Positions 10,450 to 29,484 of a stretch of 64,000 nucleotides of DNA are shown here, in pieces. The translations under genes were made by a program, and so were the position numbers. The number at the start of each line of letters is the position of its first letter. Within the stretch, counting starts at the first letter, position 1. Origin of the DNA: Planctomycetota bacterium (lineage in GTDB: Bacteria; Planctomycetota; UBA1135). Location: assembly GCA_045047305.1 (NCBI GenBank), contig JASFYO010000003.1, forward strand, positions 96,073 to 160,072. The letters run 5' to 3'. The notes below the pieces were generated by a model, which saw nothing but the letters and a program-made list of their open reading frames with translations, did not search any database and was not told where the DNA came from.

Positions 10450-11094
10450 ATGTTGCTGAAGTGGATTCAGTGTCAGGTTTCAGATTTACACCACGATGCT
10501 TTCTCCACAGCTCAGGAGGCCTGGCGAGGCATCGCGACGGAGCCGGGCTTTCTTGGACAATACGGTGGTTGGGCGGATGCTCATACTGCATGCATTCTTG
10601 GCCTTTGGGAGTCTGCCGCAGCGCAACAACGTTTCCTCCTGGAAGGTAGTCATGATTCCATTGTGGCCGCAAACCAACAAATGCACTACATGGAAAACTG
10701 GTCCACATCTTTGCTGGAACAGGTTTTTCCTATGCCAGGTGAGGCTTCGGATTTAGCAGTTGCCCTCGCCGATGCACCTGCTGGCGCCTATCTCCGTATT
10801 GCGGACTGCCACATACCGTTGACGCAGCAGCCGAGTTTCCTTATTGCGCAAGAATCCATCTGGCTTCCAGCCATGCGCGATGCCAGCGGCATGCTCGGGG
10901 GTGGTTTTTACAGCGACGCTGGAGACCATTTTTTAGTCGCGACGCTTTGGGAATCCGCCGATCATCACCAGCGCTATCAAACTGAGGATTTACCTGGCTT
11001 GCGCGCACAAGTGCAGGCACTGCAAGCATTGCCGAGCAGCATGTCCGGTTACGCGATCCAGCTGCATCCATCGTGGACCGTTAAGGCTGGCTAA
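10450..11094 (+). CDS. YdbC/DUF4937-like protein with two dimeric alpha-beta barrel repeats
   Basis: MLLKWIQCQV..FSTAQEAW..PGFLGQYGGW, with a second repeat (GMLGGGF..LWES..H). Confidence 0.6.
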   Translation: MLLKWIQCQVSDLHHDAFSTAQEAWRGIATEPGFLGQYGGWADAHTACILGLWESAAAQQRFLLEGSHDSIVAANQQMHYMENWSTSLLEQVFPMPGEASDLAVALADAPAGAYLRIADCHIPLTQQPSFLIAQESIWLPAMRDASGMLGGGFYSDAGDHFLVATLWESADHHQRYQTEDLPGLRAQVQALQALPSSMSGYAIQLHPSWTVKAG

Positions 11095-12160
11095 TCCCAG
11101 CCTGGGTCACTAGGTAGATTGCAAAGGAGGCCAGCCAGTGCTCGCCTTCAAAGTGACCACTGAACACGTATTCCAATCCAACTTCCCGATGCGCATCGGC
11201 AGCGGCAAGTAAGACTTCGCGTCGTGGATCTAGTTTGGGCAATGCGGAGACGATGCCCTCTAAGGTCCAGGCGCGGGAAAGGTTTAAACCGGCAAGGTGA
11301 ACCAAGCGCCCATCGGTTACATCGGAAACGAGGGTGGGAGTTAACACATTCCCCATGGCACCTTGGGTCAGTCCTGGGAAGAATGCGTCGAGCCAGGTGA
11401 GGTATTCATCCTGCGACAAGACGCGGCGCATCAGGTCAGCTTCATTTAACCCTGCGGAAAAGAAGTCTTCTCCCGAAGGTTCATACTGAACTGGATAGGC
11501 GGTGTCGGCTTGGTAGAAAGCAAGAGTCTTTGCAACTAGCGCCTGCTCCAGTTCCTGATTGCCAACGGCGCGCGCATAATCAAGCTCCATGCCGAATGCA
11601 AAAGCGGAGTCGGGATGGACCCCCATGCGGATGGGGTGGGAGAGCCGTGGAAGATAGCCAAGTAAGAGTTCGACGATTTGATCCTCGAGTGGCTTCAGAT
11701 TTTTCGCCCAGCGTTGCGCATCGGCATCTTCGAAAGTGTGCAGCTCCTGTGCAAGCTGCAGCAACCAAGCCCAGCCATACATACGCTCAAAACCCTTGTT
11801 CTGGTGCTCATCGAAGTAATCCGCCTCTACCTGCAGTGCCTTGGCATTCAGCTGCGCTTCGAGTAATGCGCGGATCTCTGCATCGACGGAAGACCCTGGT
11901 TGAGTCTTTAGCAAACGAACTAGCATCCAATGTCCATGCACGGAAGAATGCCAATCGAAGGAGCCGTAGAAGACCGGATGGTTGGTGCGTGGAATTACCG
12001 CCGATTCTGGACCCGTAAATACTTGGCCAGGCTTGTTGGGATACTCACGCACGATGCTGTCGAGCGCCAAACGTGCAAAGGAAACAACTTGCGCGTCTTC
12101 TAGGGAAGGGGATTGCGGCATTGCGGTTATGCAGGAAAGCACAATTGCGGTTAAGAACAT
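11081..12160 (-). CDS. DUF2891 family protein, likely exported
   Basis: EYPNK, HPVFYGSFDWHSSVHGHW, FERMYGWAW, HLAGLNLSRAW and GEHWLASFA; ATG 12160 lies 6 nt after TACACT. Confidence 0.88.
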   Translation of the reverse strand: MFLTAIVLSCITAMPQSPSLEDAQVVSFARLALDSIVREYPNKPGQVFTGPESAVIPRTNHPVFYGSFDWHSSVHGHWMLVRLLKTQPGSSVDAEIRALLEAQLNAKALQVEADYFDEHQNKGFERMYGWAWLLQLAQELHTFEDADAQRWAKNLKPLEDQIVELLLGYLPRLSHPIRMGVHPDSAFAFGMELDYARAVGNQELEQALVAKTLAFYQADTAYPVQYEPSGEDFFSAGLNEADLMRRVLSQDEYLTWLDAFFPGLTQGAMGNVLTPTLVSDVTDGRLVHLAGLNLSRAWTLEGIVSALPKLDPRREVLLAAADAHREVGLEYVFSGHFEGEHWLASFAIYLVTQAGISQP

Positions 12161-12191
12161 AGAGGAAGTGTAGCCGTGCTGAACCTTGAGA

Positions 12192-12290
12192 TAGGGGGTT
12201 CTAGGCTTCTGGACATGAGTAGGTAAACCGCGAAGGAGGGCAGCCAAGGCTCGCCATTGGGCAAGGCATCAGCAAAACAGTCAAGAACAT
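12192..12290 (-). pseudogene. Relic of a tandem DUF2891 paralog (N-terminus joined to C-terminus); boundaries approximate
   Basis: TACACT-N6-ATG reading MFLTV (intact gene MFLTA); 12220-12255 matches 11111-11146 at 29/36 nt, encoding GEPWLPSFAVYL versus GEHWLASFAIYL. Confidence 0.7.
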
Positions 12291-12296
12291 GCGCAG

Positions 12297-12306
12297 AGTG
12301 TATCCT
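12297..12306. promoter_or_regulatory. Bidirectional -10 element (TACACT on -, TATCCT on +)
   Basis: AGTGTATCCT, 6 nt from relic ATG 12290(-) and 10 nt from msrA ATG 12317(+). Confidence 0.6.
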
Positions 12307-12316
12307 AGAAGACGTC

Positions 12317-12898
12317 ATGCGGACGACCCTCACCAGCCTTGCATTCGGCCTTGTTGCTATGGCCTGCAGCACCGGAACCACCATGGATCAAATCCCAGAA
12401 CCAACGTCACCTGCAATCCCTGCCTCGATGACTCAGGAAGCGACTTTTGCCGCTGGCTGATTCTGGGGTGTTGAAGCCCTCTACCGTGCAGTAGATGGCG
12501 TTCTGGAGACGGAGGTTGGTTACATTGGCGGGCAGGTACCAAATGCGACCTACCAGCAAGTTTGCTCTGGTACTACTGGGCATGCAGAAGCGGTGCACGT
12601 GACTTTCGACCCAGCCAAAGTCGATTACGAGGACTTGCTCGCTATTTTTTGGGCCAACCATGATCCTACCCAGGCAAATGGGCAAGGTTTAAACCTTGGT
12701 GATCAGTATCGTTCTGCCATCTTTTTTCACAGTGAAGAACAGAGAGAAAAAGCAGAACTGTCGAAGTCTCAACTCAGTGTTTCAGGCCAGTTTTCGAAAC
12801 CCATTACTACGGGTATCGTGGAGTTCAAAGATTTCGTTCGTGCTGAGGGATATCACCAGCAGTATTACGAAAAGCAGGGGCTCATCCCTCGCCGCTAA
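12317..12898 (+). CDS. msrA: Peptide-methionine (S)-S-oxide reductase, probable selenoprotein (TGA 12458-12460, residue 48) with putative lipoprotein signal
   Basis: ORFs 12257-12460 and 12593-12898 share a frame; reading through gives TFAAG-U-FWGVE..GYIGG..TYQQVCSGTTGHAEAV..HDPTQ..GDQYRSAIF..AEGYHQQY. Confidence 0.9.
12473..12503 (+). promoter_or_regulatory. Candidate bacterial SECIS hairpin in msrA
   Basis: GAAGCC-C-TCTAC[CGTGCA]GTAGA-T-GGC-G-TTC stem-loop starting 12 nt after the UGA; G at loop position 2. Confidence 0.65.
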
Positions 12899-13383: not shown

Positions 13384-14382
13384 TTAATCGATGGTTTGAA
13401 TCAGGACGATGAGTGCGGTTAGGAGCAAGACCCATACCAAGAGCATGCCGACGGCCAGTTTGCGCGATTTTCGCTTTTGCCACCAAGTTCTTGGCGCGAC
13501 TCCTCGAAGGAGGAAGGTCGCGATACCTGCAAGGTTGACGCAGACCAAGTTTCCAGCGAGTAACATGGCCGCGCCTTGGGCAAGATCCCAGTTGCCTGAA
13601 GTTGCGGTGAGGGCGCAAACCACGAGTGGAGGCAGTAACGCCACCGCCACCATCACACCAACTAAGGATGCTGGGACGCCGGTGGTGAAGGCTAATGCAC
13701 CAGCGGTTCCTGCAGCCAAAGCAAGAAGCAAGTCCTCTAGGTTGAGGTGCGTGCGGCTGAGGATTTCGTGCGATCCTAAATCTAAGTCGAAAATCCAGCC
13801 AGCAAGACCCGCAACTAGGAAGGCTAAGCTAATACCGGCAATGCTGGTACGCAAACTCAGTGCGGCAAGCTTGGTGTCACCTAGAGTGCTGGCCAGGGCG
13901 AGCGCCATGTTGGGCCCGAGCAGTGGCGCAATCACCATGGCACCAATCAAAACCGCGGTGTTGTCGGTAGCGAGTCCGATGGTCGCGACGATGGTTGACA
14001 GTGCGACCATCCAAAGATGCACACGATCCAGCTTGGCGACGTCGGCTAGGTCATCGATAAGCTCTTCACGACTAATGCTGCCGCCCTTGTTCTTGGAAGA
14101 GGATTCCGCGGCAGGCGTTTCTGCTTCTGGCTCTTCCACTTTGGGCACAACCGTTTCTACCGCCAATACCACGGCCCGAAAATCTTTGTAGCTACCAAAG
14201 CTAGCCTGCAGCGGGTCCAGCACCGTAGAGACCTCTTCCGCAGGAATCAAAATGTGATACTGAGTGGTTGGCCCCGGAAGGTTGTGGCGAAAGGCCTTTG
14301 CATGCGGCAAGGTTTCCAGCAGCGCGTCGATTTTTTCAACGGCTTCATCGGGGATGAAGGTGTGCACGAGGCGGGTCGCCAT
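13384..14382 (-). CDS. TIGR00341/DUF389 family membrane protein
   Basis: IGAMVIAPLLGP, EILSRT, LALAAG and GVMVAVALLPPL; several TM segments. Confidence 0.88.
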   Translation of the reverse strand: MATRLVHTFIPDEAVEKIDALLETLPHAKAFRHNLPGPTTQYHILIPAEEVSTVLDPLQASFGSYKDFRAVVLAVETVVPKVEEPEAETPAAESSSKNKGGSISREELIDDLADVAKLDRVHLWMVALSTIVATIGLATDNTAVLIGAMVIAPLLGPNMALALASTLGDTKLAALSLRTSIAGISLAFLVAGLAGWIFDLDLGSHEILSRTHLNLEDLLLALAAGTAGALAFTTGVPASLVGVMVAVALLPPLVVCALTATSGNWDLAQGAAMLLAGNLVCVNLAGIATFLLRGVAPRTWWQKRKSRKLAVGMLLVWVLLLTALIVLIQTID

Positions 14383-14391
14383 AGGTGGACA

Positions 14392-14401
14392 AGGTTACTA
14401 T
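14392..14401. promoter_or_regulatory. Bidirectional -10 element (TAACCT on -, TACTAT on +)
   Basis: AGGTTACTAT, 9 nt from ATG 14382(-); the + gene at 14444 has a leader with a purine-rich RBS. Confidence 0.5.
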
Positions 14402-14443
14402 GCCGCCACCCCGGAGGCGAAGCCCGACGGGAAGGGAAGTTTC

Positions 14444-15343
14444 ATGACTGATTCACAAACCATTCAATCGGCTGCCGTGCTTGGTGCTGGCGCCATGGGA
14501 GCAGGCATCGCACAAGTTGCGGCGCAGGCAGGTATCCGCACGCGTCTTTTTGATATTGAAGAGTCCTTTGCCCGTGGCGGTATGCAGCGCATCGAAGCCA
14601 TGCTGGAAAAGGGCGTGGCCAAGGGCAAGATGACGGCGCAACGCAAAGACGAAGTCCTTGCTCTGTTGGAACCCGTGTGGGATTTAGAGGCAGCGGTCGA
14701 TGGCGTGGATCTAGTGATTGAGGCTGCACCGGAAAAGCTCGGCTTGAAGCAAGACATCTTTACCCGCGTCGCAGCCGTGGTCGATGCCAACGCCATCATC
14801 GCGACCAACACTTCTTCGCTTTCGGTGACCGAGTTAGCGAGCGTGGTTTCCAATCCAGAACGTTTTCTTGGGTTGCATTTTTTCAACCCGCCTCCTCTGA
14901 TGAAGTTGTTGGAAGTCGTGAAGGGAGAACTCACTTCCGAGCAAACCGTGGCACGTGCTCTTGACCTCTCCGAACGCATGGGGAAGAGTCCGATTGTGGT
15001 GAAGGATGCACCCGGATTTGCCTCTTCGCGCCTTGGCGTCACGCTTGGATTGGAGGCGATTCGTATGGTGGAGGAAGGGGTTGCCTCGGCGGTGGACATC
15101 GACACCGCTATGGAGTTGGGGTATCGGCATCCAATGGGCCCATTAAAACTCACCGACATGATCGGCTTGGATGTGCGTTTGCATATCAGCGAATACTTAG
15201 CTGAAACCTTAGACGATGTGCGCTTTAAGGCACCTGCGCTGATGCGCAAGATGGTGGCCGATGGTCATCTAGGGCGTAAAAGCGGCCGCGGTTTCTACGA
15301 TTGGACCGATGGCCAGCCGAAACCGCTCACTGATGAGCGCTAA
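14444..15343 (+). CDS. 3-hydroxyacyl-CoA dehydrogenase (PaaH/Hbd-like)
   Basis: GAGAMGAGIA, VIEAAPEKL, ATNTSSLS, GLHFFNP, HPMGPLKLTD and GRKSGRGFY; next to box genes. Confidence 0.9.
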   Translation: MTDSQTIQSAAVLGAGAMGAGIAQVAAQAGIRTRLFDIEESFARGGMQRIEAMLEKGVAKGKMTAQRKDEVLALLEPVWDLEAAVDGVDLVIEAAPEKLGLKQDIFTRVAAVVDANAIIATNTSSLSVTELASVVSNPERFLGLHFFNPPPLMKLLEVVKGELTSEQTVARALDLSERMGKSPIVVKDAPGFASSRLGVTLGLEAIRMVEEGVASAVDIDTAMELGYRHPMGPLKLTDMIGLDVRLHISEYLAETLDDVRFKAPALMRKMVADGHLGRKSGRGFYDWTDGQPKPLTDER

Positions 15344-16082
15344 CCGTTTCGCGTAAACGCTGGTGCGTGGTGGATAGGTCACTTGCAGAGGTATCCAAAG
15401 TAAGAGCTGCGCGTTGGTAATAAGGTTCGCGTGCGGCCAAGAGGTTGCGCAGTTCCGCCATGGCATCGGCATGACCTTTCATCGGGCGATGGTCGCCTTG
15501 CGCAAGCACCCGAGCCATGCAATCCTCCGGTTCGGTACGTAACCAAACGGTGGTGAAGTTGTTTTCCACTAAAGCGAAAACGTTTTCATCTAAAACGATA
15601 CCACCAGGAAGCGCCACCACTTTTGCGCTGCCAGAGGAAATGAGTTTTTGAATCGCTTCTCCGCCGAGGCGTCGGTAATAGCTTTCGCCGTGCAGCGCGA
15701 ACACTTCGGATAGATTGAGGCCTGCCATGGACTCGATTTCTTCATCAAGCTCCAGGAAGTCTAGGCCAAGTGATTCGGCGAGTAATGCACCCAGGGTGCT
15801 TTTGCCGGATCCACGAATGCCGAGCAATGCAATACCGCGTTGTGCTGGCGGGGAGATGTCATCTTTCAGGAGGTCCACCAATGGGATTTGCAGGGCCGTG
15901 GCTAGGGCATCGAGGCGCCCAATCGCAATGTTGGCTTCGGCGGATTCCACTTGTGCATAGAAGCGTGGGCTTAAGCTTGAGCGCGAAGCAGCCTCGGCCA
16001 TCGTCCATCCAAGCTCGGAACGCCGCGCACGCACGCGAGTGGCGATGCGCTGTAGCAGTTCGGGATTAGGTGGGCTGGACAC
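15327..16082 (-). CDS. boxR: BoxR/BzdR-type regulator (XRE HTH plus shikimate kinase-like benzoyl-CoA sensor)
   Basis: HTH (RVRARR..LSPRFYAQVE..ANI) fused to GIRGSGKSTLG..ELDEEIE..YYRR..RVLAQGDHRPM; divergent from boxC; GTG start at 16082 inferred. Confidence 0.85.
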   Translation of the reverse strand: MSSPPNPELLQRIATRVRARRSELGWTMAEAASRSSLSPRFYAQVESAEANIAIGRLDALATALQIPLVDLLKDDISPPAQRGIALLGIRGSGKSTLGALLAESLGLDFLELDEEIESMAGLNLSEVFALHGESYYRRLGGEAIQKLISSGSAKVVALPGGIVLDENVFALVENNFTTVWLRTEPEDCMARVLAQGDHRPMKGHADAMAELRNLLAAREPYYQRAALTLDTSASDLSTTHQRLRETVSAHQ

Positions 16083-16085
16083 TTC

Positions 16086-16145
16086 TGCAATATAGTGCAA
16101 ATATCCTAGAAATGAAACATTTATCTGTACTATTTTGCAGGTGCA
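16086..16145. promoter_or_regulatory. Putative BoxR operator and divergent promoter region
   Basis: TGCA-N6-TGCA at 16086-16099, TGTA-N6-TGCA at 16126-16139 and TGCA at 16142-16145 in an AT-rich spacer. Confidence 0.7.
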
Positions 16146-16160
16146 AGCCATAATCTGAGG

Positions 16161-17804
16161 ATGGAAGCGACTCAAAACGCTGTGGAACCTGTCCACTTCG
16201 AAACTCATCCCGACCGCTATCAGCACCTCAAGGTGGAGATCGACGGTCCGGTTGCGCGCCTCATCATCGATATCAATGAAGATGGTGGCCTACGTCCGGG
16301 TTATGTGTTGAAACTCAACAGCTACGACCTTGGTGTCGATATTGAGCTTTCCGATGCGGTGCAACGTCTGCGTTTCGAGAACCCAGAGGTGGGGGCCGTC
16401 ATGGTCACCAGCGGGCAAGAAGGTGTATTCAGCTCGGGCGCGAATATCTTCATGTTGGGCAGCAGCACTCACGCATGGAAGGTCAACTTTTGTAAGTACA
16501 CCAACGAAACCCGCGGATCGATTGAGGATGCAACCGAGTTTTCCGGGCAGACTTACATCGCAGCTTTGAATGGTGTGGCATCGGGTGGTGGTTATGAACT
16601 TCCACTCGCCTGTGAGGAAATGTACTTGGTCGACGACCGCCGTTCCGCGGTATCGCTTCCAGAAATTCCTTACCTCGGTGTACTTCCAGGCACCGGCGGT
16701 TTGACCCGCTTGGTCGATAAGCGTTTTGTGCGTCGCGATTTGGCCGATGCTTTCGTCACTCTTGCAGAAGGAGTGAAAGGAAAGCGCGCTGTGCAGTGGG
16801 GTTTGGTCGATGGCATCTTCCCAACTTCTAAGTTTGAGGAAGGCGTAGCTGCTCGCGTTGCCGAAGTTGCAGGCGAAGGGCATCCGGAGCGTAAGGGCAT
16901 CACTTTGGAAGCTCTTAAGCCAACTGAAAATGAGTTTGGCGTGCAATATCAGCACGTAAACCTGGAATTGGACACTTCGGAGCGCACCGCAACTCTAACC
17001 ATTACCCTTCCTGACAGTCTTCCGGAAATCCCAGCCGACGCACGCGACCTTGGCAGTGCTTGGTACCCATTGCGCGCCTTCCGCGAGTTAGACGATGCCA
17101 TCATGCGCTTGCGTTTGAACTATCCGCACATCGGTTTGGTTTTGCTCAAGACCCGCGGCAAAGCGGAAACGATTTTGGCTCTCGATGAAATGATGGATGC
17201 ACGCCGTGATGACTGGTTCGTCAACGAAGTGCTGCTGTTCATGAAACGCACCTTCAAGCGTTTGGATTACACCGCCAAGAGTTTCTTTGCCATTATCGAT
17301 CAAGGCTCTGCTTTTGCAGGAAGCTTCTACGAGTTTGCGCTCGCTGCCGACCGTTCTTTCATGTTGGAAGAAGAAGGTGTGACCGTGCAGCTCTCAGTCA
17401 TGAACGGCGGTACCTTCCCGATGGGCAATGGTCTGTCGCGTTTAGAAACTCGCTTCTTTGGCCACGAAGGTGTTGCTGAAGGATTGGCAGCCCGGCGCGA
17501 AGCTTTCGATTCCGATGAAGCGGAAGAACTCGGTCTGATCACCGTTGCCGCCGACGACATTGACTGGGACGATGAAGTGCGCCTCGCTATCGAAGAGCGG
17601 GTCAACTTTTCACCCGACTCCTTAACCGGCATGGAAGCGAGTATTCGTTTTGCCGGTCCTGAGACCATGGAAACCAAGATCTTCGGCCGCCTGACAGCGT
17701 GGCAGAACTGGATCTTCCAGCGTCCCAATGCTGTCGGACCGAAGGGCGCATTAAGCCTCTACGGTCGTCCTGAATCCCCTGAATTCGATTGGAATCGCAC
17801 CTAA
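16161..17804 (+). CDS. boxC: 2,3-epoxybenzoyl-CoA dihydrolase
   Basis: LKLNSYDLGVDIEL, KVNFCKYTNETR, GVLPGTGGLTR and ETMETKIFGRLTAWQNWIFQRPNAVG. Confidence 0.95.
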   Translation: MEATQNAVEPVHFETHPDRYQHLKVEIDGPVARLIIDINEDGGLRPGYVLKLNSYDLGVDIELSDAVQRLRFENPEVGAVMVTSGQEGVFSSGANIFMLGSSTHAWKVNFCKYTNETRGSIEDATEFSGQTYIAALNGVASGGGYELPLACEEMYLVDDRRSAVSLPEIPYLGVLPGTGGLTRLVDKRFVRRDLADAFVTLAEGVKGKRAVQWGLVDGIFPTSKFEEGVAARVAEVAGEGHPERKGITLEALKPTENEFGVQYQHVNLELDTSERTATLTITLPDSLPEIPADARDLGSAWYPLRAFRELDDAIMRLRLNYPHIGLVLLKTRGKAETILALDEMMDARRDDWFVNEVLLFMKRTFKRLDYTAKSFFAIIDQGSAFAGSFYEFALAADRSFMLEEEGVTVQLSVMNGGTFPMGNGLSRLETRFFGHEGVAEGLAARREAFDSDEAEELGLITVAADDIDWDDEVRLAIEERVNFSPDSLTGMEASIRFAGPETMETKIFGRLTAWQNWIFQRPNAVGPKGALSLYGRPESPEFDWNRT

Positions 17805-17807
17805 AGC

Positions 17808-19232
17808 ATGGCTATCACCTACGACAAAATTCCCAACAACATTGATCTCGCAAGTAACCGCAAGGTCAAGAAGGCACTCGAAGCTTGGCAGCCCGATTTC
17901 AAAGATTGGTGGATGGAGATGGGGCCGGAAGGTTTCCAGGACGATGACATCTATCTGCGTACTGCGATTAGCGTAGATTCCAGTGGCTGGGCGCATTTTG
18001 ATTACGTCAAAATGCCTGACTACCGCTGGGGTATTTTTCTCGCACCGCCAGTCAAAGACCGCAAGATTGGCTTTGGCGATAACGCAGAAATGAATGTCTG
18101 GGATCAGGTTCCTGGCGAATACCGTAAAGAGTTACGTCGCATGATTGTGACTCAATGCGATACCGAGCCGGCATCGGTGGAGCAGCAGCGTTTGCTCGGA
18201 AAGTGTGCGCCAAGTCTTTATGACATGCGCAACTTGTTCCAGGTCAATGTTGAGGAAGGCCGCCACCTATGGGCCATGGTGCACTTGCTGCACGAGTACT
18301 TCGGTAAGGACGGGCGTGACGAGGCCGACGAAATGCTGCAACGTCGTTCGGGTAATCCGGACACCCCACGGATCCTGGAAGCCTTTAATAAGCCAGTCGA
18401 AGATTGGCTGGCCTTCTTTTGCTTTGCCATGTACATGGACCGCGACGGCAAGTTTCAGTTAGGTGCTTTGGCGGAAAGTGGTTTCGATCCACTCGCACGG
18501 GCAACCAAGTTTATGTTGACTGAGGAAGCGCATCACTTGTTTGTTGGAGAAACCGGCGTAGGGCGCGTGGTTGCCCGCACCGCCCAGGTGATGGCGGAGA
18601 ACCCGGAGACCGACCCACATCAGCTGGGTGTGGTGCCTTTGGACATCATCCAAAAGTACATCAACGAGTGGTACACCGGCTCCCTCGACTTGTTCGGTGG
18701 AGAAGATAGTTCCAATGCAGCGAATTACTTTGGTTCTGGACTGAAGGGGCGCTTTCAAGAAATGAATCCGAAGCGCTTTACTGAGCATCAAGCTATGGAC
18801 GAGTGCTACAACTTGGATTGGATGGAAGACGGCAAGATGGCCAGCCATGAGATCCCGATGCGCCGTGCCATGAACTTAGTCCTGCGGGATGCTTACAAAG
18901 AGGATTGTGTGCGCGCCATGGTGCGCTGGAATAAGAGCCTCGAGAAGGCTGGACTGGATGAGCGCCTTTACCTGCCATCGCAGCGCTTCAACCGCCGTAT
19001 TGGTGTTTATGCGAATCAAAGTTTCGACCCTCACGGGGAGATATTGAGTGAAAAGGCATTCACCGAGCAGTTTCCTCAGTGGATTCCGACCACTACCGAT
19101 TTGGAATACGTGAAGTCTCTTATGGTGCAGGTCACCACCCCTGGTGAATATGCAGGCTGGATTAATCCACCTTCCAAAGGACTCAACGGCCAGCCGGTTG
19201 ATTTCGAATACGTGAAGTTTGTAAACGCATGA
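17808..19232 (+). CDS. boxB: Benzoyl-CoA 2,3-epoxidase subunit B (di-iron)
   Basis: YVKMPDYRWGIFL, DTEPASVEQQ, NVEEGRHLWAM, DRDGKFQL and MLTEEAHH. Confidence 0.95.
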   Translation: MAITYDKIPNNIDLASNRKVKKALEAWQPDFKDWWMEMGPEGFQDDDIYLRTAISVDSSGWAHFDYVKMPDYRWGIFLAPPVKDRKIGFGDNAEMNVWDQVPGEYRKELRRMIVTQCDTEPASVEQQRLLGKCAPSLYDMRNLFQVNVEEGRHLWAMVHLLHEYFGKDGRDEADEMLQRRSGNPDTPRILEAFNKPVEDWLAFFCFAMYMDRDGKFQLGALAESGFDPLARATKFMLTEEAHHLFVGETGVGRVVARTAQVMAENPETDPHQLGVVPLDIIQKYINEWYTGSLDLFGGEDSSNAANYFGSGLKGRFQEMNPKRFTEHQAMDECYNLDWMEDGKMASHEIPMRRAMNLVLRDAYKEDCVRAMVRWNKSLEKAGLDERLYLPSQRFNRRIGVYANQSFDPHGEILSEKAFTEQFPQWIPTTTDLEYVKSLMVQVTTPGEYAGWINPPSKGLNGQPVDFEYVKFVNA

Positions 19233-20809
19233 GCACCACAGCAACGCTTTTGAAAAGCCACCTTTGCGGTGGTTGGCATCAGGGTGATGGCGAGACCGTC
19301 ACCCTGTTCAATCCCACGACCGGGGAAGCCGTAGGGGAAGTATCCCGCGGTGGACATGACTTAAAGGCAGCATTGCAATATGCACGGGAAGTCGGTGGTC
19401 CAACTCTACGCGCGATGAGCTTTGCCGAGCGTGGCGCATTGCTTGCTGCTATGGCCAACGCCTGGCATGCCCATCGCGATGAGCTTTTGGATTTGAGCAC
19501 TCTGTCGGGGGGGAACACCCGTGGCGATGCCAAGTTTGACATCGATGGTGGCACTGGCACCTTGATGGCTTATGCAAAGATTGGCGAGAAGCTTGGAGAA
19601 GCCAAGTTCTTCATCGATGGAGAAAGCATTCGCCTTTCGCGCAGTCCCCGTTTCGTCGGACGTCACGTGCAAACTCCGCGCGGTGGAGTTGCGGTGCATA
19701 TTAATGCCTACAACTTCCCAGCCTGGGGCATGGCGGAAAAGGCTGCCTGCGCCATTCTTGCTGGAATGCCGGTTTTGACTAAACCTGCGACCAGCACCTC
19801 GCTATTAGCGGAACGCATGATGGAAATCTTGGTGGAAGACAAGGTGCTTCCCGAAGGTGTGCTACAGATGTTGGTCGGTTCCGCTAGCGATTTGCTCGAC
19901 CATGTCAGCGGACAGGATGTCGTCGCATTCACGGGGTCGGCATGGACTGGTCGCACGATTCGTTCCGGTAAAGCGGTCATTGCAAACTCGGTGCGGGTCA
20001 ACGTCGAAGCCGATAGTTTGAATTCCGCAGTCCTCGGGCCTGATGTCAAGCCGCAGAAAGAAACCTGGGATTTGATGGTGCGCGAAGTTACCACCGACAT
20101 GACCCAAAAGGCTGGTCAGAAATGCACTGCGATCCGGCGCATCTTTGTGCCGGTTGAGAAGGTTGAGGAATTTAAAGCAGACTTGAAGGAGTCCATCGCT
20201 AGCATTCGCGTCGGCAATCCTGCTACCCGTGGAGTTCGCATGGGGCCGGTTGCCAGTGCAGCGCAACTTAAGGATGTGCAAGAAGGCATTGCGGAACTTC
20301 TGCAAGAGTCCGACATCGTCCATGGCGAACAAGGCCGCGGTACCTTGTTAGAGGTGGAGGAGGGCAAGGGTTATTTCCAAGCTCCTGTGCTGCTGCAAAT
20401 TCGGGACAGCCAAACCGCCAAGCTAGTGCATGAGCGCGAAGTTTTTGGCCCAGTTGCAACACTCATCCCTTACGACGGCGATGCAGCCGCGCTTGGCGCT
20501 TTGCTGAATAAGGGCGAAGGTGGGCTTGTGGCTTCGATTTACTCCGATGACCGCAAATTCGCTGCAGACCTCATGACCGTGGTGGCTCCATTCAATGGGC
20601 GCCTCAACTTCGGCAGCAAGAAGGTTGCGGAGATGTCGATGGGACCTGGCGCAGTGCTTCCTATGTTGGTTCACGGCGGCCCCGGAAGGGCTGGTGCCGG
20701 TGAGGAACTAGGCGGTCTGCGTGGTATGTCGCTTTATATGCAACGCACTGCGTTGCAAGGCGACGAGCCGATGTTGGCCGAGATCATGGCCGACGGCATT
20801 GAAGTCTAA
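19229..20809 (+). CDS. boxD: 3,4-dehydroadipyl-CoA semialdehyde dehydrogenase (PaaZ-type ALDH, no MaoC domain)
   Basis: HINAYNFPAWG, FTGSA, EADSLN, KAGQKCTAIRR, EVFGPV and HGGPGRAG; follows boxB. Confidence 0.88.
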   Translation: MSTTATLLKSHLCGGWHQGDGETVTLFNPTTGEAVGEVSRGGHDLKAALQYAREVGGPTLRAMSFAERGALLAAMANAWHAHRDELLDLSTLSGGNTRGDAKFDIDGGTGTLMAYAKIGEKLGEAKFFIDGESIRLSRSPRFVGRHVQTPRGGVAVHINAYNFPAWGMAEKAACAILAGMPVLTKPATSTSLLAERMMEILVEDKVLPEGVLQMLVGSASDLLDHVSGQDVVAFTGSAWTGRTIRSGKAVIANSVRVNVEADSLNSAVLGPDVKPQKETWDLMVREVTTDMTQKAGQKCTAIRRIFVPVEKVEEFKADLKESIASIRVGNPATRGVRMGPVASAAQLKDVQEGIAELLQESDIVHGEQGRGTLLEVEEGKGYFQAPVLLQIRDSQTAKLVHEREVFGPVATLIPYDGDAAALGALLNKGEGGLVASIYSDDRKFAADLMTVVAPFNGRLNFGSKKVAEMSMGPGAVLPMLVHGGPGRAGAGEELGGLRGMSLYMQRTALQGDEPMLAEIMADGIEV

Positions 20810-28434: not shown

Positions 28435-29484
28435 ATGAATGCAATTACACATCTTTTAGCTGGTGCCGCTTTAACGCTAGTCGTTTCTAGCCCGGCAACA
28501 GCGCAAGTCTCTGGTACCATGCCAAGCTTTGAAGGCGCTACCTGGTACAACACACCAGCACTCTCGATGGAGGATATGGAAGGCCGGGCCGTGATGGTCG
28601 AGGTTTTCCGTACTTGGTGAGGCCCTTGTAAGAGCCAGATCCCGCACCTGAACTCCGAATGGGAGAAAGGGAATGCAAAGGGACTGGTTGTCATCAGCGT
28701 GACTGATGAACCTGCCGAACTGGTGGAGCAATGGATTGCCGATCTTGGCGTGACCCACCCCGTAGTCATCTTGCCGGACAAAGCTCTGGAGAATGTCATC
28801 GGAGTCGATGGTTTTCCAACGTCTGCTGTTTTCTTGAATAAGGAAATGGTGTGGAAAGGGTATCCCGGTGCTGCCGGACCAGAACTGGAAGCCGCGCATA
28901 AGGAAGGGCGTCAAGATAGCGTCTACCCCAAGAAACTGAGCAAGGTAGTCAAGTTTTGGAATAAGGGCGACAAGGTGAAAGCTTTGCTGGACCTTTACAA
29001 AACGATGCCGAAATTGGAAGGCAACGATTTAGCTTGGGCTGGTCGTATGGACACTTTTATGAAAAATGAAAGTGCCAAGGCCTTCGAAGCTTCTGCCAAG
29101 GCCTTCGAAGCAGGATTTTGGTTCCAGGGTGTACAACTCGCGCAGCCTTATCTGGGTAAAGGTTCGGAGTATCCTCGTGTCGCTGAAACCGTGAGCCACC
29201 TAGAAATGATGAAAGGGAGGCCAGGTTACGCCAAGGAAATCAAAGGCGGGTATCTGTACCAGCAGGCTAAGGCTCTGTCGGCCGCGGGTGAATACCTCGA
29301 TGCCTTCAAGACTTACAAGAAGGTCATGAAGAAGTCTTCCGATACTGCGATTGCCGGCCATGCTGAGACAGCTGCAAGGGAGCTCATGGATGGATATAAG
29401 CCTGGGTACAAGTCCACTTGTCCAAACTGTGATCATAAAACCGATGCTGCCTGTGCGAAGCATCGGGAGAAAGTGAAAATCTAG
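28435..29484 (+). CDS. Exported TlpA-like redoxin, probable selenoprotein (UxxC, TGA 28618-28620, residue 62), with helical C-terminal domain
   Basis: ORFs 28423-28620 and 28699-29484 share a frame; reading through gives WYN..GRAVMVEVFRTW-U-GPCKSQIPHL..GLVVISVTDE..GFPT; signal peptide (ATA/Q); GGAG RBS. Confidence 0.85.
29073..29111 (+). repeat. In-frame tandem duplication with 21-nt period (SAKAFEA x2)
   Basis: TGCCAAGGCCTTCGAAGC occurs at 29073-29090 and 29094-29111. Confidence 0.85.

Follow-up and report, generated by a model that had tools for sequence, protein, structure and literature searches.

A predicted selenocysteine-containing MsrA with a lipoprotein-like leader in a planctomycete genome

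In the 64,000-nt stretch of Planctomycetota DNA analysed here, referred to as the window, a gene resembling msrA is broken by a TGA triplet at the position of the catalytic cysteine. Does this triplet specify selenocysteine (Sec), and how would the resulting enzyme, which has a lipoprotein-like N-terminus and no resolving cysteine, be recycled? A sequence-only reading of the window had proposed a membrane-anchored, extracytoplasmic Sec-MsrA encoded in one frame. That frame, 193 codons plus TAA (12317-12898, forward strand), runs from the ATG at 12317 to the TAA at 12896-12898. Its sole internal stop is the TGA at 12458-12460, codon 48, which occupies the C of the MsrA GCFWG motif in the context AAG-U-FWGVE; the coordinates of the proposal are thus borne out.

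The read-through product matches the Pfam PMSR family (PF01625) with E=1.2e-61 and 207.9 bits against a cut-off of 23.7, and TIGR00401 with 195.8 bits (cut-off 108.1). The motif G47-U48-F49-W50-G51 is present, and the active-site residues F49, W50, Y79, E91, Q130, Y131, H180 and Y183 are intact and match those listed for CoMsrA in the available portion of PMC4333827. An AlphaFold2 model has a mean pLDDT of 81.6, with low values for residues 1-40, and the top Foldseek matches of the model are all MsrA (E=7e-17). The product is therefore an MsrA by profile, motif and predicted fold, for which Met-S-sulfoxide reductase activity is predicted. The C-terminal sequence HQQYYEKQGLIPRR (12854-12898) holds the active-site residues His180 and Tyr183, and the protein ends in a short tail 10 residues past Tyr183, with neither a resolving Cys nor a helical domain. 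This msrA is the only PF01625 match reported in its genome and the only full MsrA found there, in an assembly of 2.83 Mb that is 87.7% complete.

The TGA is present in msrA of 9/9 genomes of the genus. At the family level, an MsrA match was obtained in 32 of 49 genomes; of the 38 matches, 24, each from a different genome, carry one TGA, and in all 21 of these 24 that were read (G045, G046 and G047 being left out), the TGA is the catalytic codon. Comparison of codons 16-94 past the TGA with 18 other Sec genes gives pN of 0.12-0.33 and pS of 0.71-0.96, i.e., purifying selection. Decay downstream of the TGA in orthologues would have spoken for a dead gene; what is seen is a retained TGA followed by strongly constrained sequence. 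Assembled contigs from two sequencing runs of different studies, X1 and X2, span msrA with 8 and 10 differences, none of them at the TGA. Eight listed coding differences, whose codon effects were worked out by hand, comprise six synonymous changes in the catalytic domain and two that alter residues of the N-terminal tether; runs X3 and X5 gave no useful coverage of the TGA. Misassembly of a TGC or TGT codon thus finds no support in these two strains, as judged from contigs rather than raw reads.

A genuine stop codon or a misassembly, leaving a pseudogene or a split gene, would agree with the output of gene callers and protein databases, which list only the downstream piece. Close relatives are entered as pieces of 132-142 aa starting after the TGA, and orthologues are truncated or misread, much as the sequence-only reading had expected of standard annotation. 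However, this piece is without the catalytic residue, and the TGA of 24 family genomes, the purifying selection downstream, the covarying hairpin described below, the Sec machinery and the two strain contigs all argue against such an explanation, which can be regarded as effectively refuted.

The Sec machinery is encoded in the same genome: selA, selB and selD were found, together with selC, a tRNA-Sec of 75.6 bits with a UCA anticodon, so that all four genes whose presence had been set as a check are accounted for. The selD gene itself has an in-frame TGA (SSGUAAK). A SelA-family match was obtained in 40/41 related genomes, one match being a short fragment only. Reading of TGA as another amino acid throughout the genome (code 4 or 25), or insertion of Cys or Trp at the msrA codon, could be suggested by the database homologue P0011, which shows Gly at the Sec position. 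The simplest explanation of this Gly, as we infer, is an artefact of gene calling. TGA terminates 336/1177 long open reading frames of the genome, which excludes a changed genetic code; the tRNA-Sec carries the UCA anticodon, and where an in-frame TGA has family support, it takes the place of a redox Cys. A different amino acid at codon 48 is accordingly scarcely credible, and the msrA TGA very likely encodes Sec, as judged by these genomic comparisons. That MsrAs containing Sec exist, as the sequence-only reading had stated, is documented: Sec-MsrA with a GUFWG/H motif is an experimentally verified family in Table 1 of PMC13188914, in the part of that review available. It was also observed that the Gly codon directly 5′ of the UGA (12455-12457) is GGC in 16/16 Sec orthologues; other four-fold sites vary more, and this codon may contribute to the context for recoding.

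A stem loop beginning 12 nt after the TGA had been pointed out, and it is located at 12473-12503 of the forward strand (GAAGCC-C-TCTAC[CGTGCA]GTAGA-T-GGC-G-TTC). Its core stem, 12476-12484 paired with 12491-12499, carries one mismatch in this genome and closes on the apical loop CGTGCA (12485-12490), in which a G stands at loop position 2, 24 nt from the UGA. A 36-nt piece containing the hairpin folds at -11.9 kcal/mol (z=-3.3); pieces of 63, 80 and 111 nt 3′ of the TGA fold no better than shuffled sequences (z +0.4, +1.3 and +1.4). The bSECIS model given in the Fig. 2 legend of PMC13188914, as far as that text is available, specifies a loop of 3-9 nt, a stem of >=4 bp, a G in the first two loop positions, a spacing of 16-37 nt and an MFE of <=-7.5, and the msrA hairpin fits this model with its loop CGTGCA, spacing of 24 and -11.9 kcal/mol. 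In our own implementation the model is passed by 12/18 candidate Sec sites of the genome versus 66/443 ordinary TGA stops (15%), and by 189/1345 internal Cys codons. Within the single gene the hairpin is thus only modestly beyond chance, and because 15% of control TGAs also pass, the weight of the hairpin claim comes from conservation.

Sixteen aligned Sec genes share a 9-bp stem on a 6-nt loop, with pairing in 97.2% of its 144 cells; 7 cells are changed on both sides, a covariation count that is overstated because the genes are kin and not independent. None of 500 shuffles reaches 97.2%, a result not to be read as a probability since sequences that are akin may outscore shuffled ones; in slid controls the pairing is 26-59%. 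Codon choice under the hairpin is also restricted: Glu is GAA in 16/16, Tyr is TAC in 15/15 and Arg is CGT in 16/16, and at four- and six-fold sites the mean share of the top codon is 0.86 under the hairpin versus 0.58 elsewhere. Seventeen stand-alone Sec genes show 8-9 of the 9 stem pairs versus <=7 in 76 Cys genes. Two Sec MsrB-MsrA fusions show 5 stem pairs and instead form, around the same CGT, a hairpin at a different position. From its conservation and covariation, the hairpin after the msrA TGA would appear to serve as a SECIS.

The msrA codon has company. At least 17 further candidate Sec codons are present in the 2.8-Mb genome, roughly half belonging to proteins whose leaders resemble export signals. 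One is in the window, in a TlpA-like gene described below, and others are at contig positions C3:51825, C13:929, C23:21086, C28:23852, C29:100678, C33:7882, C34:355, C44:4526, C45:19380, C55:5483, C56:16521/16881/20900, C58:42114, C63:569 and C82:63514. The candidate proteins include SelD, Prx, Bcp, a SelW-like protein, two AhpD-like proteins, two Ogt (VPUHRV), a DUF3179 protein, a VPGUxxT-type protein with two Sec, and several thioredoxin (Trx)-fold proteins. The VPGUxxT type 2 selenoprotein (L131; C56:16186-17103, reverse strand) scores 338.6 bits against NF041383, above the cut-off, and has an export-like leader and a second Sec within an MsrA-like MSUFWEG segment. A large FG-GAP/ASPIC-UnbV lipoprotein-like gene (L134; C63:1-2579, reverse strand) is interrupted by a TGA in frame (DVDVUSSFW), with a strong hairpin behind it; its Sec position lies outside every family model, and it is possibly an uncatalogued selenoprotein. 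False candidates such as C44:11372, C49:19296, C7:34257 and C19:54930, where the TGA lies between two genes, were rejected as Sec codons.

The structural subtype of the enzyme bears on how it might be recycled. The msrA product scores 152 bits against poplar MsrA and 142 bits against Escherichia coli MsrA, with 86 bits against CoMsrA, the Sec enzyme of Clostridium/Alkaliphilus oremlandii. The accessible sections of PMC4333827 and PMC4479559 describe CoMsrA as Cys-free, with a helical domain at its C-terminus that is essential. With CoMsrA (PDB 4LWJ, 4U66), as it is described in those sections, the planctomycete protein shares Sec at the catalytic position of GUFWG, the lack of a tail resolving Cys and the same active-site residues; it differs in having no helical domain, in Cys83 and in its lipoprotein leader. 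Having no C-terminal helical domain and containing Cys17 and Cys83, it is not of the CoMsrA type. Canonical Cys MsrAs (E. coli 1FF3; poplar 2J89; PF01625/TIGR00401) are the closest in sequence and fold, with GxFWG and a Cys aligned to Cys86, whereas the planctomycete form has UGA/Sec in place of the catalytic Cys, no C-terminal resolving cysteines and an added lipoprotein leader.

Sampling of 151 genomes of the phylum gave a TGA in at least 22 among the 150 matches listed (there are 14 further matches). Nineteen of 20 TGA matches outside the family were examined, and 18 have U at the active site: 15 of the helical type, 2 MsrB-MsrA fusions and 1 short canonical form. One helical-type example scores 192 bits versus CoMsrA. 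In the careful tree, which has 45 rows and the catalytic column masked (L158 and L190 left out; a 95-row tree was a quick tree only), five helical-type genes form a long separate branch with a support of 100/100. Comparison across the phylum thus indicates that Sec-MsrA is common in it and that the subtype of this family is distinct from the helical one that has been studied. As a separate observation, CoMsrA-like helical-domain Sec-MsrAs (L184-L199) are widespread in other Planctomycetota families, often with an export-like leader.

The N-terminus was described in the sequence-only reading as a lipoprotein signal with an imperfect lipobox. By pattern, a lipoprotein signal peptide (M1-A16) and a lipobox Cys17 (TGC at 12365-12367) are predicted at 12317-12367 on the forward strand; the leader MRTTLTSLAFGLVAMAC has the layout MRTT-LTSLAFGLV-AMAC, ending in Cys17. 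The AMAC lipobox is non-canonical, and the form xMAC is seen again in the set of 78 lipoproteins predicted for the genome. Of the stand-alone Sec orthologues, 18/19 have a basic-hydrophobic leader that closes on a lipobox Cys (the exception being L062, whose available DNA shows none), with lipoboxes such as AVAC, ALAC, LTAC and TAAC. Lgt and LspA are encoded in the genome, and the single MsrB found in it also has a lipoprotein-like leader, with a Cys active site. Pattern matching in the orthologues therefore agrees with the earlier description, and export of MsrA is predicted to be highly probable. As to the proposal of a membrane-anchored, extracytoplasmic Sec-MsrA, its Sec part is well supported by the conserved TGA, the machinery and the hairpin, and anchoring and export, consistent with the leader pattern and with Lgt and LspA, stand as predictions.

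Residues 18-40 (12368-12436, forward strand) form a low-complexity Ser/Thr/Pro tether of low pLDDT that is variable among orthologues and contains two in-frame Met codons, Met23 (12383) and Met39. The protein could therefore be made in two forms, a lipoprotein started at Met1 and a cytoplasmic one, started at Met23 or Met39 and recycled by glutaredoxin, with the sole msrA gene serving both compartments. A tether Met occurs, at shifting positions, in 16/18 Sec and 10/13 Cys lipoprotein MsrAs, counts from kin that are not independent, versus 26/78 lipoproteins predicted from the genome that carry a Met among their first 24 residues; the assembly yielded a single full MsrA, and three matches to the glutaredoxin (Grx) family have no leader by eye. 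Two such forms were also proposed for Neisseria MsrA/B (PMC6372556), but the truncated Neisseria form was not seen in that study itself, so far as its available text goes. Shine-Dalgarno pairing ahead of Met23 is weak (-3.5 kcal/mol) and uninformative, since first and internal ATGs are alike in such pairing in this genome. Dual forms are on balance improbable. Genome-wide there is no Shine-Dalgarno enrichment ahead of first ATGs, and TANNNT hexamers peak 6-9 nt ahead of them (133/1337 ORFs at 6 nt), which suggests many leaderless transcripts.

With the enzyme read as a single exported lipoprotein, its cysteines can be considered. The tail is free of Cys, as it is in 19/19 stand-alone Sec orthologues and as had been noted for this protein; a Cys after the HQxY motif occurs in 0/19 distinct stand-alone Sec genes versus 66/76 Cys homologues, counts that overstate the difference because kin are not independent. 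The msrA product thus lies outside the 2-Cys and 3-Cys MsrA class, having no C-terminal resolving Cys. Sec as such does not force the loss of the tail Cys, for Sec MsrB-MsrA fusions of the family keep it in 4/5. Fusions of this kind (L154, L158, L171, L178, L179, L181, L182), with Sec in the MsrA half and a differently placed hairpin, mostly have a C-terminal Cys.

One genus of the same family, g15, shows the converse arrangement. Its msrA has TGT or TGC at the catalytic codon behind the same lipoprotein leader, a tail Cys in 5/5, and the same divergent DUF2891 neighbour in 3/3 tested; the hairpin is absent, with 3-6/9 stem pairs and -1.3 to -3.0 kcal/mol. Same-locus orthologues therefore have either Sec, a SECIS and no tail Cys, or Cys, no SECIS and a tail Cys. 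In the 45-row tree g15 lies among the Sec lipoproteins, and 0/200 bootstrap trees contain a split that sets the Sec lipoproteins apart. Support at the deep forks is not strong, so that a change from Sec to Cys in g15 is suggested only.

Once the protein is mature, its one free Cys is Cys83 (12563-12565, forward strand), which had gone unremarked in the sequence-only reading. The same exported Sec-MsrA could be recycled through a Sec48-Cys83 selenenylsulfide, or through an intermolecular diselenide, before any partner acts. Cys83 is invariant in an alignment of 68 sequences, but it is equally conserved in the Cys enzymes with tail resolving cysteines, and it aligns to E. coli MsrA Cys86, which is not known to be used in catalysis. 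For the dimer, there is the finding that CoMsrA forms dimers linked through the catalytic residue during turnover (PMC4479559, available portion). Internal or dimeric recycling is on the whole considered unlikely.

The preferred reading is that of a canonical-fold MsrA whose conserved catalytic TGA is read as Sec, whose leader anchors it as an envelope lipoprotein and which is recycled by an exported partner; taken as a whole it is quite probable. Following the established biology of SelB and SECIS (PMC13188914, available text), SelB would bind the hairpin and deliver Sec-tRNA to the UGA. Judging from the leader, processing by Lgt and LspA would tether MsrA outside the cytoplasm via Cys17 and the flexible linker. 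By MsrA chemistry, Sec48 would attack Met-S-oxide in envelope proteins and be converted to the selenenic acid. There being no C-terminal resolving Cys, the oxidised Sec48 would need direct attack by a partner, an exported thioredoxin-like protein that is likely a UxxC TlpA/Trx selenoprotein, and a DsbD-like membrane protein may then re-reduce this partner.

Direct reduction by an exported (seleno)thioredoxin is the least certain step, its chances being put slightly better than even. It is favoured because DsbD-like and UxxC genes are present and because envelope relays from DsbD/CcdA through thioredoxin to Msr are published (PMC3322552, PMC13488963, PMC3914529, as far as their text is available). 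The genome encodes a DsbD-like protein of 768 aa, at 102 bits below the NCBIfam DsbD cut-off of 330, and PF02683 is matched in 47/49 family genomes. In several Trx-fold genes, a UxxC motif is encoded with an in-frame TGA behind an export-like leader. The second selenoprotein gene of the window (28435-29484, forward strand) is a TlpA/ResA-like thioredoxin with TWUGPC, a TGA at 28618 and a signal-peptide-like leader; it is split by standard gene calling, has the TGA in 17/17 family matches and fails the bSECIS test. This TlpA is a candidate reductant of MsrA that is not physically linked to it. In genus g9, whose members encode Sec-MsrA, the query used detected the window Sec-TlpA in 0/5 genomes; this TlpA does occur in genera g17 and g11, which yielded no MsrA. 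No reductant gene is located beside msrA, the neighbours being DUF2891, DUF1425, DUF389, glutamate-synthase-like and enoyl-CoA hydratase genes. The parts of a relay, membrane transporter and exported thioredoxins, are thus present in the genome and non-adjacent to msrA, and their co-occurrence is partial. An MsrP-like molybdoprotein scored 81 versus a cut-off of 207, with no obvious leader, and was not counted as MsrPQ.

Published systems offer a comparison, within what is available of these papers. Neisseria PilB/MsrAB with DsbD, Streptococcus pneumoniae CcdA-Etrx-MsrAB2 and Caulobacter ScsB-TlpA likewise join an extracytoplasmic Msr to a membrane electron transporter via a thioredoxin-like protein, and corresponding parts occur in this genome. 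Unlike the planctomycete case, those relays have MsrAB fusions, a fused or dedicated thioredoxin and no Sec mentioned; here MsrA and MsrB are separate, Sec is in MsrA, the partner is not adjacent and the candidate thioredoxins are selenoproteins. CoMsrA is reduced by glutaredoxin and not by thioredoxin (PMC4479559, available portion). At the predicted envelope site, the usual glutaredoxin/glutathione recycling of an MsrA without resolving Cys should be out of reach. A bolder version can be entertained tentatively, at somewhat less than even chances: an all-selenium envelope relay, in which a DsbD-like protein would feed exported UxxC selenothioredoxins, and these a lipid-anchored Sec-MsrA of a second class, separate in origin from the clostridial helical type, that discarded its resolving Cys, one genus having gone back to Cys with the SECIS lost and a resolving Cys carried.

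As to what is known, a survey of the marine GOS data reported 9 Sec-MsrA sequences (PMC2398784, available text), and lipoprotein Msr enzymes are already published (PMC13488963, available text). The inventories of Sec-MsrA in PMC13188914 and PMC2398784 concern the same GUFWG/H family and, in their accessible parts, do not distinguish subtypes or location. The words ‘lipoprotein’, ‘periplasm’, ‘signal peptide’ and ‘Planctomyce’ are absent from the main text of the former, a 2026 review, and ‘Planctomyce’ is absent from the available part of a 2022 review (PMC9312934). Within the open-access literature, supplements aside, no paper was found that treats a Sec-MsrA lipoprotein or the selenoproteomes of Planctomycetota. 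Thus msrA is a real, well-supported selenoprotein gene; Sec-MsrA and lipoprotein Msr are each known, and the two were not found combined in the literature searched.

The bacterial Sec-MsrA that has been studied is a helical-domain enzyme of an anaerobic clostridium, and the planctomycete form represents a different structural subtype with a predicted envelope site. The matched Sec and Cys orthologues allow a direct test of whether an oxidoreductase that has Sec can do without a resolving Cys and, if the relay reading is true, g15 and the Sec genera would be a natural matched pair for the benefit of selenium in an oxidising compartment. Because databases hold only a truncated, catalytically dead piece of msrA, and at least 17 further candidate Sec codons are hidden, annotation understates the redox capacity of this lineage.

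The surroundings of msrA provide a few minor observations. The divergent neighbour, a DUF2891 gene at 11081-12247 on the reverse strand, is found beside msrA in many relatives, the genus with the Cys form among them, and served solely to establish msrA orthology. A -10-like hexamer, TATCCT (12301-12306, forward strand), lies 10 nt before the ATG and in the same place in most orthologues; it is a possible, weak promoter whose 10-nt spacing falls outside the 6-9 nt peak of the genome, and a scan for sigma-70 promoters and terminators at msrA found nothing, TATCCT included. Downstream, at 14264-20809, a cluster resembling genes for aerobic benzoyl-CoA (box) degradation adjoins msrA across the genus; from their translations, we take its ORFs to be 3-hydroxyacyl-CoA dehydrogenase-like, XRE/shikimate-kinase-like (a regulator) and BoxC/BoxB-like.
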